64,000 nucleotides of DNA from an uncultured Chloroflexia bacterium. GTDB lineage: Bacteria; Chloroflexota; Limnocylindria; QHBO01. Under the pieces are notes generated by a model that had not been told where the DNA came from, searched no databases, and saw only the letters and a program-made list of their open reading frames with translations. Location: the NCBI GenBank assembly GCA_963767985.1, contig CAVYGE010000002.1:169211-233210 (forward strand), in the 5' to 3' direction. The position numbers and the translations under genes were made by a program. Shown here one piece after another: positions 3,554-6,782 of this stretch; the stretch's first letter is position 1, and every line of letters begins with the position of its first letter.

Positions 3554-3874
3554 ATGCGTGAGATGACGTTCAGCCCGGCGCTCGTCGGCGCCGCCTGTGA
3601 CCTGGGCGAGGCCGACCTTCGCGTCCGGGTCGCCGAATGGAGGTCGCTGCGCGAGCATGCCGCGCACGTCGCGCTCATCGACGACGGCGTCGCCGTCGAG
3701 CTCGCCCCCGACCAGGACGTGCGCGCGGCTGCGGACCTTGCGGCTCGTGAGTCGGATTGCTGCCCGTTCTACGCCATGACCCTGACGATCGCCGGGCCTT
3801 CGCGTCGCCTGGCGATCACCGCCGGGCCGGGCGGCCAACCCGCCGTCCAGGCCCTGCTCGGGATGCTTCAGTAG
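3554..3874 (+). CDS. Small Cys-containing protein (AC-x-L ... E-x-x-CCPF), resembling the C-terminal domain of some MerR-type proteins
   Basis: [17 protein letters not shown]...[10 protein letters not shown]; leaderless TATGCT 6 nt before the ATG. Confidence 0.6.
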
Positions 3875-4534
3875 CGACGCCCCCGCTGGCGGGCCAGGTC
3901 GAACTGTGCGGTGTCGGCGATGGCCATGACGGCCATGGTCCCCGCCTGGACCGGGTCGGACACCACGAGGTCGGCGGCATCCGCGACGGACCCGGCCATG
4001 TTCAGGGCGATGACCGGCACGCCCGTGCTCGCGCAGCTCGCGGACGGCCGTCGTGATCTCGCCGCCCATGATCGCCCCCGCCAGCACCAGGCAGCGGGCG
4101 CGAGGCAGGTCCGCGACCGCCCGCACCGCCGCGGCGATGGCATCCTCGCCCACCAGCGCGATGGTGTCGACGCTGATGCGCTCGCCGCGCAGGTTGTGGC
4201 GATCGGCCTCCGAGACGGCGCCCAGGGCAACCTGCGCGACCTGCGCGCCTCCGCCGATGACGATCACCCGCTTGCCGAAGACGCGGTCGAGGATCCGCGT
4301 CGGCTCCTGGGACTCGATGGCGGCGACTCCGGCCAGCGCGGCCGCGAGGCCGGCCTCGTCCAGCCCGATCACCTCGAGCTCCGCCTCCGCCACCCCGTCG
4401 CTGACCCGCGGCGTCGACAGCGTGCGCAGCGTTCCTCCCGCGGCGGCCACGGCCGACACGATCTGGGCCAGTGAGTCGGGTGCGTCGGTGAACCGAAGCC
4501 GGATGGCGCTCGAGGTGCCCGGGGGACCGGTCAT
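3868..4534 (-). CDS. ACT domain + DUF5612 protein (archaeal AF1403-like); frameshift ~4022
   Basis: [40 protein letters not shown]...[10 protein letters not shown] / [41 protein letters not shown] directly follows the trpG stop. Confidence 0.8.
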
Positions 4535-5119
4535 CTAGCGCGCCGCCACGCTGTTCGCGCGTCGCAGAAAGCTCGCGACGAGGGCGTCACCGTCGTCGGT
4601 CAGGATCGATTCGGGATGGAACTGGACGCCCTCGACGGGATGCGTGCGGTGGCGCATGCCCATGACCACGCCGTCGTCGGACCACGCGGTGACCTCGAGC
4701 TCGTCGGGCAATCCGTCGCGTGCCACGGCCAGCGAGTGGTAGCGGGCGGCATCGAACGGCGAGGAAACCCCATCGAACGAGCCCGCACCGGCGTGGTGCA
4801 CCGGCCGCGCCTTGCCGTGCACCGGGGGCACGCGGATGACCGCCGCTCCGTAGGCGACGCCGATCGCCTGGTGCCCCAGGCACACGCCGAGGATCGGCAC
4901 CGACGATCCCAGGGCGCGGACGAGCTCCACGCTGATCCCCGCCCGTTCGGGCAGGGACGGTCCGGGAGAGATGACGATGGCGTCGGGACGCGTGGCCTCG
5001 ATCTCGGCCACCGTGACCTGGTCGTTGCGCGCGACGGTGACATCGGCGCCGATGCGGCCCAGCTGGTGCACGAGGTTGTAGGTGAACGAGTCGTAGTTGT
5101 CGAGCAGGAAGACCTTCAC
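4535..5119 (-). CDS. trpG: Anthranilate synthase component II (glutamine amidotransferase)
   Basis: LLDNYDSFTYNL, ISPGP, LGVCLGHQ, RYHSL, GVQFHPES. Confidence 0.9.
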   Translation of the reverse strand: MKVFLLDNYDSFTYNLVHQLGRIGADVTVARNDQVTVAEIEATRPDAIVISPGPSLPERAGISVELVRALGSSVPILGVCLGHQAIGVAYGAAVIRVPPVHGKARPVHHAGAGSFDGVSSPFDAARYHSLAVARDGLPDELEVTAWSDDGVVMGMRHRTHPVEGVQFHPESILTDDGDALVASFLRRANSVAAR

Positions 5120-6477
5120 TCCGGACCCCCGATCGCCGCGAGCATGGAGGCGGCCTTGGCTGCGACCTCCGCCGCCTCGCGGTCCGGGATCGAGTCGGCC
5201 ACGATGCCGGCCCCCGCATGCACGGTCGCCACGCCGTCGCGGATGAGGGCCGAGCGGATGGTGATGGCGCACTCGACGTCGGTCGGGCTGAAGTAGCCAA
5301 CGGCCCCGCCGTACGGGCCGCGCTTCTCGTCCTCGAGCTCCGCGATGGCCTGCATGGCCCGGACCTTGGGGGCGCCGCTCACCGTCCCGGCCGGGAACAC
5401 CGCGCGAACCGCGTCGAAGGCATCGAGCCCGTCGGCCAGGCGGCCGTGGACCTCGGACACGATGTGCATGACATGCGCGTAGCGTTCGACGTCGCGCAGG
5501 GTGGTGACCTCGACGCTGGCCGTGGTCGCGACGCGCCCGACGTCGTTGCGTGCCAGGTCGACGAGCATGGCGTGCTCCGCCAGCTCCTTGGGATCGGCCC
5601 GCAGCTCCGCCTCGAGAGCCGCGTCCGCGACGGGGTCCTCGTCACGGCGCCGGGTGCCCGCGATCGGCCGCGTCACGACCTGGCCGTCCCGGACCCGGAC
5701 CAGCAGCTCCGGCGATGCGCCGACCACGGCGGCACCGGGAGAGACGACGCTGAGGTCCAGGTAGTAGAGGTAGGGGGACGGGTTGACGCGTCGCAGGGAG
5801 CGGTAGATGTCGAGCGCGGTGCGATCGGTCGGAACGGAAAAGCGGCGCGCCAGCACCGTCTGCAGCATCTCTCCGGCGTGGATCTCCTCGACCAGCCGTG
5901 CCACGCCTCGCTCGTAGCGGTCCCGCGCATCGGGGTCGGTCTCGGGGGGCACGACGGCCGCGGGAAACTGGAGCGGAACCTCACCGGGCGCCGGCGTGCC
6001 CAGCGCCGCTGCGACATCCTCGAGTCGCTCGGGGGCGCCGGGGCCATCCAGCGTGGCGACGCGCGCGACCTGGGCGAGGTGGTCGAAGATGATGACCACC
6101 GACGGGATGTGGAAGACGGCGTCCGGCATGCCGAGCGGGTCGGCGGCAACGGCCGGAAGGCGCTCCCAGTGCGCCGTGGCCTCGTAGGCAAGGTAGCCGA
6201 CTCCCGACGCGAGCGGGAATCCCGGGTCGCCGGCGGACGCCGTGACGGACGGCAGCTCGCCGCGCAGGACCTCGAGCGGGTCGCCGTCCTCGGGCCGCAC
6301 GACCAGCGTTCTGCCATGCACGCCGGCGATCGAGTAGCGACCGTAGCGCGCGCCGCCCTCGACGCTCTCGAGCAGGAAGGCGCAGCGGGAGCCGAGGCGC
6401 AGCGCCGCAGCGACGGGGGTCAGCGTGTCGGCGGCGAGTTCGATGCTCGTGACGCGGGCGGGGGTCGCGATGGTCAT
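5116..6477 (-). CDS. trpE: Anthranilate synthase component I
   Basis: FLLESVEGG (Trp feedback site), NPSPYLY, GASPELLV, RPIAGT, EHAMLVDLARND, FPAGTVSGAPK, RGPYGGAVGY; upstream Trp T-box. Confidence 0.9.
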   Translation of the reverse strand: MTIATPARVTSIELAADTLTPVAAALRLGSRCAFLLESVEGGARYGRYSIAGVHGRTLVVRPEDGDPLEVLRGELPSVTASAGDPGFPLASGVGYLAYEATAHWERLPAVAADPLGMPDAVFHIPSVVIIFDHLAQVARVATLDGPGAPERLEDVAAALGTPAPGEVPLQFPAAVVPPETDPDARDRYERGVARLVEEIHAGEMLQTVLARRFSVPTDRTALDIYRSLRRVNPSPYLYYLDLSVVSPGAAVVGASPELLVRVRDGQVVTRPIAGTRRRDEDPVADAALEAELRADPKELAEHAMLVDLARNDVGRVATTASVEVTTLRDVERYAHVMHIVSEVHGRLADGLDAFDAVRAVFPAGTVSGAPKVRAMQAIAELEDEKRGPYGGAVGYFSPTDVECAITIRSALIRDGVATVHAGAGIVADSIPDREAAEVAAKAASMLAAIGGPE

Positions 6478-6499
6478 TGGGTCCTGCTCTGGTGGGAAC

Positions 6500-6533
6500 G
6501 ACAAAGCCTCCATCCGGATCAGGGACGGAGGCT
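6500..6533 (-). terminator. T-box intrinsic terminator
   Basis: AGCCTCCGTCC-loop-GGATGGAGGCT followed by TTGT; overlaps the 3' arm of the antiterminator. Confidence 0.8.
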
Positions 6534-6782
6534 CTCTTCCGCGGTGCCACCCTTGGTTCGGACCCGGGCGGGTCCGCGCTCATTCGGGCCGATGTTAACG
6601 GGGCCCAGCCCGTCGCCGCCTAATGTGTTCGGAGCCGAGGAGTATTACCGTATATACCCACCGCCGAAACACCTCGGAGCGAGGCTCGCGGGTCCATTCA
6701 CGCTCGTCGTGCCATGCCGGCTCGCACCATCCCGGCTCGCTCCCATGGCCGTGCGATCGCTACTCGTCCCAATCGTCGCCAT
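6500..6782 (-). promoter_or_regulatory. T-box riboswitch with Trp (UGG) specifier
   Basis: Minus strand: kink-turn GGCGACGA, AGTA loop, GGTGCGAG distal loop, GAA-TGG-A specifier, CCGTTA stem IIA/B, stem III CGGACCCG/CGGGTCCG, T-box AAGGGTGGCACCGCGG. Confidence 0.92.

Follow-up and report, generated by a model that had tools for sequence, protein, structure and literature searches.

A DUF5612 (AF1403) family gene behind trpE and trpG in a tryptophan T-box operon of a Limnocylindria genome, and the narrow distribution of its trp linkage

The structure of AF1403 from Archaeoglobus fulgidus (PDB 1Y7P, 'probable metabolic regulator'), which defines the AF1403/DUF5612 family (Pfam PF18462), has been solved since 2005, and we found no functional study of the family in the open-access literature. 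T-box riboswitches that control tryptophan (Trp) genes have been described in the phylum Chloroflexi, where the account given for Dehalococcoides places them upstream of trpE and of a trpB-like gene (Wels et al. 2008, PMC2494555). In this study, we analysed a 64,000-nt stretch of DNA, hereafter the window (contig CAVYGE010000002.1 of assembly GCA_963767985.1, positions 169,211 to 233,210), in which a gene of this family, the DUF5612 gene, closes a Trp T-box operon that also contains trpE and trpG. Near-identical proteins and related contigs name Candidatus Limnocylindria, phylum Chloroflexota, as the source. For a family that has a solved structure but no assigned function, a conserved position in a riboswitch operon would have been a useful clue. 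We show that the linkage to trp genes is confined to one genus, and the DUF5612 protein is, in the reading that we favour, an ordinary ligand-binding member of its family.

The Trp T-box operon and its interrupted last gene

The T-box leader, trpE, trpG and the DUF5612 gene lie in that order on the minus strand (Table 1). The initial annotation of the window had proposed that a Trp T-box controls trpE, trpG and a third gene whose ATG directly follows the trpG TAG, and this arrangement of genes and leader was confirmed by RF00230, by Pfam and NCBIfam, and by the sequence itself. In the alignment to the T-box model GAA-UGG-A falls at the specifier position, so that a Trp codon is read, and AGGGUGGCACCGCG is aligned at the T-box motif, accompanied by the UGGC bulge motif. 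Homologous T-boxes lie 5' of trpE in the related loci L052 (87.6 bits) and L047 (64.7 bits), and their specifier and T-box motif positions are likewise filled. The stem II region of the window T-box contains an insertion of ~30-45 nt (6610-6665, minus strand) that is relatively A+T-rich (GGUAUAUACGGUAAUAC) and is missing from the orthologous leaders of L047 and L052.

Table 1. Features of the Trp T-box operon, its 3' flank and the second trp unit (window positions unless another contig is named)
Feature	Position	Strand	Evidence or remark
Promoter-like site TTGACC-17-TAGCAT	6799..6827	-	consensus scan, 5' of the T-box; consensus match only (1 found, 0.2 expected in shuffles)
T-box leader, Trp specifier	6518..6785	-	RF00230, full model (positions 1-219), 75.5 bits, below the Rfam gathering score of 93; E 1.4e-15
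Terminator-like hairpin	6503..6535	-	13-bp stem, 7-nt loop, then UUUGUCGUU
trpE, anthranilate synthase component I	5116..6477	-	Chorismate_bind E 1.3e-86; Anth_synt_I_N
trpG, glutamine amidotransferase component II	4535..5119	-	GATase E 1.3e-54
ACT-like/DUF5612 gene, part 1	4022..4534	-	171 codons; PF18462 E 8.2e-42, 142.9 bits, profile positions 3-92
Frameshift site, G run with one extra base	4021..4024	-	alignment with five relatives
ACT-like/DUF5612 gene, part 2	3868..4020	-	next frame, 50 codons (4020..3871) and stop 3870-3868; PF18462 E 4.5e-19, 69.1 bits, profile positions 95-142
Small open reading frame (ORF), 106 aa	3554..3874	+	between the DUF5612 gene and the SRAP-type gene; 0 Pfam families
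SRAP-type (SOS response associated peptidase) gene	2831..3514	-	codirectional 3' neighbour of the DUF5612 gene
trpD, trpC/F/B ORF, trpA	C3:70051-74429 (own genome, other contig)		profile searches

The terminator-like hairpin shares the 3' arm of the antiterminator in the predicted fold, and folding of 6560..6470 gave a minimum free energy of -33.2 kcal/mol (z -1.81). A terminator role for this hairpin is inferred from sequence, and the U tract that follows it is weak (UUUGUCGUU). The likely start of trpE is the ATG at 6477, which lies 3' of the hairpin, has AGGA six bases upstream and would give a protein of 453 aa, the length of the orthologs (L047, P0304-P0306) from which this start was deduced; an alternative ATG is present at 6513. 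With the NCBIfam model TIGR00564 TrpE scored 455.1, below the equivalog cut-off of 517.7, and it is the genome's sole Chorismate_bind match; an identity as TrpE rather than PabB is favoured by the Trp T-box 5' of the gene. TrpG scored 220 bits with TIGR00566, for which the cut-off is 121. The GTG start codon of trpG at 5119 overlaps the trpE stop codon as GTGA, and the trpG TAG (4537-4535) is followed directly by the ATG of the DUF5612 gene at 4534. Because these stop and start codons abut, cotranscription of the DUF5612 gene with trpE and trpG is plausible, and no terminator-like site was found between trpG and the DUF5612 gene in a consensus scan. Two other candidates, a terminator-like site inside trpE (5858..5843) and a CRISPR-DR29 match (E 0.62), were treated as chance.

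Under Trp limitation, uncharged transfer RNA for Trp (tRNA-Trp) would be expected to pair with both the UGG specifier and the UGGC bulge and thereby to stabilise the antiterminator, upon which trpE, trpG and the tail gene would be transcribed and be translated by coupling. If so, synthesis of the DUF5612 protein should rise with the level of uncharged tRNA-Trp.

The third gene had been annotated as a single gene at 3868..4534. Both halves of PF18462 are indeed found there, each above the curated cut-off of 25 bits, and the signature motif quoted for the family is present, but they do not form one frame: the annotated end at 3868 reads silently across an extra base, and this assembly holds no single uninterrupted frame of ~220 codons for the split gene. 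Continued past the break, the frame of the ATG at 4534 runs out-of-frame into the next gene as a 567-aa ORF. At the break the window reads CAC-GGG-C-GTG, whereas five relatives read CAC-GGC/GGG-GTG. An intact ortholog (L029) is 88% identical over the first 171 residues and 100% identical over the last 50, with no stops (tblastn), and intact relatives match PF18462 positions 2-142 in one frame. Among the 32 genomes with a match, PF18462 lies in a single frame in 30, and the two broken copies are those of the genome studied here (G000) and of G021, whose assemblies consist of few contigs each (7 and about 20, respectively). A phosphoenolpyruvate carboxylase (PEPC) gene ~5 kb away (window 6799-9931, plus strand) is also split between two frames, with PF00311 positions 1-692 in one and 691-919 in the other and a break near 9242-9246, which suggests that indel errors are frequent in this assembly.

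The extra G at 4021-4024 is probably an assembly error, because 30 relatives have the gene in a single frame and the only other broken copy sits in a few-contig assembly, because PEPC is also split in a genome that is 84% complete in 7 contigs, and because the contigs that bridge the site in four of four public metagenome runs are without one base at 4022. Alternatively, the frameshift could be real, in which case the DUF5612 gene of this strain would be a pseudogene truncated after ~171 correct residues and the operon would effectively end at trpG. The assembly as given does hold one extra G, and the gene seems to be dispensable in many relatives, as searches recovered no copy in 19 of the 36 genomes of the genus (many of which are incomplete) or in 14 of 15 same-family genomes that are at least 94% complete. 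We nevertheless consider a pseudogene improbable, since the break falls in a homopolymer run, another conserved gene in the same neighbourhood is frameshifted as well, both halves are otherwise undamaged, and every bridging contig in the four runs lacks the base, even though these contigs derive from relatives and not from this strain. A 378-aa 'TrpG-DUF5612 fusion' (P0086) was rejected as a real fusion, its linker being out-of-frame sequence that results from a frameshift in a long-contig assembly.

Conservation of the trp linkage

Within the genus of the window, 13 of the 16 located loci are trp-linked (14 of 17 genomes when the window is counted). The DUF5612 gene abuts trpG in the same manner as in the window in seven of the 16 and lies 3' of trpA in three. 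In three others an opposite-strand glyoxalase-like gene is found between trpG and the DUF5612 gene, and therefore these two genes are not one transcript there; the glyoxalase-like gene (L031, L033/L052, L036) is 71-100% identical among the three genomes and sits in a trpG-DUF5612 gap of ~490 nt. The last three loci show no trp link and have the gene orders hexapeptide transferase-lysA-DUF5612 (L049), moeZ-cysM-mec-DUF5612 (L048, from a genome flagged unpublished) and DUF5612-gltB (L050). The genus is recovered as a single clade by maximum likelihood (support 91/81), and at least four changes of the trp-adjacent label are required within it.

Outside the genus the picture is different. No trp genes were found in the flanks of 14 loci from two sister families. 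Among 80 Chloroflexota loci taken with flanks of up to 6 kb, trp genes were present in four, all of them from the genus of the window, and in other Chloroflexota families they were present in one of 20 loci (L142), where the DUF5612 gene is convergent with trpA. None were found near 80 metagenome loci seeded with archaeal-type members, many of which had short flanks. The cluster of L142 (5419-10410) has the order trpD-C-F-B-A, and its trpB and trpA genes flank a class-I W/Y tRNA-synthetase-type gene. A partner of anthranilate synthase or a pathway enzyme had been proposed on the strength of the trp linkage, and that proposal loses its basis with a linkage that is essentially confined to one genus.

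It had also been suggested that the DUF5612 gene replaces the rest of the trp genes. The genes trpD, trpC, trpF, trpB and trpA are indeed not in this operon, but they are not replaced: they are present on another contig, behind a second T-box that lies 5' of trpD-C/F/B-A and has UGG as its specifier as well. The canonical set of trpE, G, D, C, F, B and A is complete in the genome, and a check for missing trp genes, which the initial annotation had recommended, found none. Moreover, in one congener (L051) the full set precedes the DUF5612 gene in the order trpE-trpG-trpD-trpC/F/B-trpA-DUF5612-SRAP. The domains of TrpC (indole-3-glycerol phosphate synthase), TrpF (phosphoribosylanthranilate isomerase) and TrpB lie in one frame of 889 aa in the genome studied here and of 892 aa in this congener (L051:2496-5171), and this ORF may be a real trifunctional fusion; in L142, which belongs to another family, the TrpC, TrpF and TrpB matches are separated by gaps of 60-90 nt.

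Could the DUF5612 protein still belong to the Trp pathway in this genus? It might sense Trp or an intermediate by means of its ACT domain and act as an allosteric partner of anthranilate synthase (TrpE/TrpG), or it might be a non-orthologous enzyme working at the chorismate/anthranilate node. Its gene abuts trpG under a Trp T-box, stands beside trp genes in 14 of 17 located genomes of the genus and is convergent with trpA in one unrelated Chloroflexota family (L142), and ACT domains commonly bind amino acids. We find this unlikely, as the linkage outside the genus comes to 0/14, 0/80 and, in convergent orientation, 1/20 loci; as in three congeners trpG is separated from the DUF5612 gene by a gene on the opposite strand, and in three others the DUF5612 gene lies after lysA, after cysM-mec or before gltB; and as a complete canonical trp set leaves no step missing. 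TrpE itself contains an LLES stretch, which we take to be part of the Trp feedback site. The DUF5612 gene is single-copy in most genomes, so that the trp-linked gene is orthologous to those without the linkage rather than a specialised paralog. A complex prediction for TrpE, TrpG and the DUF5612 protein (three alignments; score 0.00, mark 0.32) weighs neither way on binding.

The commonest gene order in the class is a different one, namely a small ACT protein (33 of the 80 loci), the DUF5612 gene and an Exo_endo_phos protein (42 of 80), which is the most conserved neighbourhood of the family among the loci studied here. The small stand-alone ACT protein of ~90 aa is encoded directly 5' of the DUF5612 gene on the same strand in sister families (L054, L067, L068, L086 and 29 further loci), and the Exo_endo_phos protein of ~300 aa is encoded 3' of it. 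The small ACT protein is a candidate partner of the DUF5612 protein; with one protein query it was not found in the genome of the window, which at 84% completeness may still encode it. Genes of arginine biosynthesis stand beside the DUF5612 gene in seven of the 80 loci. In L107, L112, L115, L120, L122, L123 and L124 a monophyletic, long-branched DUF5612 group lies amid argC/argJ/argB/argD, and the N-terminal ACT-like part of this group is too diverged to align before query residue 49-74. Elsewhere the neighbours varied and included ion channels, HAD phosphatase with sugar kinases, thiG/thiE and gltB. An excess of amino-acid genes beside the DUF5612 gene (14/80, ~3/20 and ~2/31 loci) was considered, but by a rough estimate these counts do not clearly exceed the number expected from two random neighbours, and we make no such claim outside the genus.

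Fold, distribution and likely role of the DUF5612 protein

The assignment to the AF1403/DUF5612 family made in the initial annotation stands: PF18462 is matched, and the intact ortholog L029 aligns with AF1403 (1Y7P) at E 1.1e-55 over both domains (residues 17-217 against 16-220). The intact protein of ~221 aa has two domains and is without a DNA-binding domain. The N-terminal ACT-like domain that had been annotated was recovered by fold and not by profile, as Pfam ACT (PF01842) gave no match to the N-terminal 80 residues at E<=0.01. The AlphaFold model (mean predicted local distance difference test, pLDDT, 90.9) shows an N-terminal domain of beta-alpha-beta-beta-alpha-beta order, an ACT-type topology, and Foldseek matched ACT domains to it (e.g. 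3ibw, TM score 0.69, E 4.7e-5). This domain thus appears to be ACT-like by fold only.

A second structure search, independent of Foldseek, returned 1Y7P (1y7p_A) with Z 26.3 and a root mean square deviation (rmsd) of 3.8 over 208 residues, followed in the next 40+ rows by sugar/ribose-binding periplasmic proteins and LacI-type regulators (Z 11-14, rmsd 2.4-3.3). These alignments cover 116-134 residues and all fall on model residues 82-218; the C-terminal alpha/beta domain of the model is thus similar to a single lobe of the ribose/sugar-binding periplasmic-binding-protein/LacI fold. The C-terminal domain is ~65-80% identical between archaea and Chloroflexota, and its invariant charged residues comprise K85, R86, E106, D108-N111, R113, E115, S118, D120, R142, D185 and D190. 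A weak sequence likeness to AF_1212 (2IOJ, DRTGG-type) was found at E 0.005. An ESM Atlas search for look-alikes of residues 82-221 that excluded PF18462 returned nothing usable, and Pfam and NCBIfam searches of the DUF5612 protein revealed no catalytic motif typical of a known enzyme family.

It is conceivable that the DUF5612 domain is an enzyme or sensor for ribose or a sugar phosphate (ribose-5-phosphate, phosphoribosyl pyrophosphate (PRPP) or a nucleoside) that is gated by an amino acid through the ACT domain, and that the Trp link comes about via the use of PRPP by TrpD. The alignments with ribose/sugar-binding proteins (Z 12-14), the many invariant charged residues and the likeness to the DRTGG-type AF_1212 would agree with such a role, and 1Y7P is tabulated with the ligand RIP (ribose) in PMC2954221. 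Some gene neighbours point the same way: a HAD-type phosphatase is encoded directly 5' of the DUF5612 gene on the same strand in three of 31 long metagenome loci (L164, L198, L200), with an FGGY or PfkB sugar kinase further 5' in L198 and L200, and kinases of these types are found nearby in L189 (FGGY) and L195 (PfkB, with 6PGD). These neighbours fit the sugar-binding-lobe fold loosely. On the other side, the fold is very common and the likeness extends to one lobe of what are two-lobe binding proteins, the crystal ribose may stem from crystallisation or cryoprotectant solutions, most gene neighbourhoods are unrelated to sugars, and the motif searches matched no known enzyme family. An enzymatic or sensing role of this kind is an alternative to be kept in view, although we rate its probability as low.

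The initial annotation had described the protein as archaeal-type, with an occurrence mainly in methanogens and Archaeoglobus. This description proved too narrow, as PF18462 was found in 66 of 301 Chloroflexota genomes (completeness >=85%) and in many bacterial-looking metagenome contigs. Its occurrence by Chloroflexota family is patchy (14/16, 10/10 and 4/4 genomes in some families and 0 in many), with one of 15 genomes in the window's own family; in the window's genus, in which many genomes are incomplete, it was found in 17 of 36. Archaeal members include those of Methanosphaera and Altiarchaeum. A metagenome scan seeded with archaeal-type sequences returned mostly bacterial-looking contigs. 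The high conservation of the C-terminal domain is reflected in a library clustered at 50% identity, where no more than 483 representatives match at E<=0.001.

Taken together, we think it likely, with moderate confidence, that the DUF5612 protein is an ordinary ligand-binding protein of the AF1403/DUF5612 family, that its position behind trpE and trpG reflects either an accident of gene order within the genus or a recent recruitment, and that this position gives no evidence of a Trp-specific function. In its general role it is probably a stand-alone small-molecule sensor and regulatory subunit, of which the ACT domain would bind an amino acid and the C-terminal domain a sugar or ribose-type ligand, and which would act on a partner protein rather than on DNA.

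Several observations weigh against this interpretation. The trp linkage is dominant within the genus (14/17), and the three same-genus exceptions all stand beside amino-acid biosynthesis genes, namely lysA, cysM-mec and gltB, which leaves room for a real tie to amino-acid metabolism or, in this genus, even to Trp. The likeness to a sugar-binding lobe is that of a common three-layer alpha/beta fold and shows no function, and the invariant charged residues of the C-terminal domain would suit an active site as well. No measured ligand, partner or activity for any family member was found in the open-access literature. Finally, no sequencing run contains the reads of this strain (the best share of words was 0.18), so that the extra G in the DUF5612 gene may yet be a real mutation.

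On a bolder proposal, DUF5612 proteins would be modular sensors whose ACT domain recognises an amino acid and whose lobe recognises a ribose or PRPP-type ligand, and Limnocylindria would have recruited them several times as tail genes of amino-acid operons (trp, arg, lys, cys, glt); the protein encoded in the window would then be a T-box-controlled modulator of anthranilate synthase or of the supply of PRPP and chorismate, induced by Trp starvation. We regard this as quite improbable. If true, it would provide the first functional handle on a family that is conserved from Euryarchaeota to Chloroflexota.

As to the genes beyond the DUF5612 gene, SRAP orthologs are found in L046 (1940-2620) and L051 (6652-7323), with PF02586 at E 3.8e-59 and 5.4e-56, respectively; their distance from the preceding DUF5612 gene is 29 nt (L046) and 7 nt (L051). 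The operon tail therefore also carries a gene without a Trp connection. The position after the DUF5612 gene is taken by SRAP in the genus of the window (window, L046, L051, L052) and by Exo_endo_phos in sister families, and enzymes acting at abasic sites in DNA are known from both of these families. The small ORF between the DUF5612 gene and SRAP in the window holds a CCPFY stretch and is missing in L046, where the gap is 29 nt; the GGCTACCATCGGC stretch 5' of the SRAP start is conserved between the window and L046. Further downstream, at ~2100-2750 of the window (plus strand), lies the sequence of a BioY-like membrane protein, and in the lysA-linked L049 BioY is likewise located 3' of the DUF5612 gene, on the opposite strand.

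Comparison with known systems

Among described proteins AF1403 is the same by family model, by sequence and by two-domain fold, and its length of 223 aa is close to the ~221 aa of the DUF5612 protein. Unlike AF1403, the protein studied here belongs to a bacterial host (Chloroflexota, Limnocylindria), is encoded by the last cistron of a Trp T-box operon and is frameshifted in the assembly. Many family members carry the Joint Genome Institute (JGI) name EhbQ ('energy-converting hydrogenase B subunit Q') of methanogens, and a Methanosphaera member falls within the same 50% cluster set. This name is an annotation transfer from methanogen ehb operons, in which ehbQ is the last gene and so again a tail gene. 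No hydrogenase genes were found near the DUF5612 gene in the window or among the annotated neighbours of the 80, 20 and 31 loci; in L129 antiporter subunits of the NADH-dehydrogenase type are encoded upstream of the DUF5612 gene. PheB of Bacillus subtilis, a small ACT-type protein that is cotranscribed with aromatic amino-acid biosynthesis genes, is likewise a stand-alone ACT protein in an amino-acid operon, but it does not have a DUF5612 domain.

What is new here is modest, namely a genus-specific operon in which a DUF5612 gene follows trpE and trpG under a T-box. That the linkage is confined to one genus guards against annotating the DUF5612 family as Trp-related, and more general leads come from other lineages, in the frequent pairing with a small stand-alone ACT protein and in the sugar-binding-lobe fold together with the crystal ribose. 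With regard to the riboswitch, the Dehalococcoides T-boxes share the phylum, the riboswitch class and the target pathway, and the description available for them gives two Trp-related T-boxes per genome (PMC2494555). Unlike the arrangement described there for Dehalococcoides, trpE-trpG and trpD-C/F/B-A form two separate T-box units in the genome studied here, and the first of them has an extra, non-trp gene at its tail.

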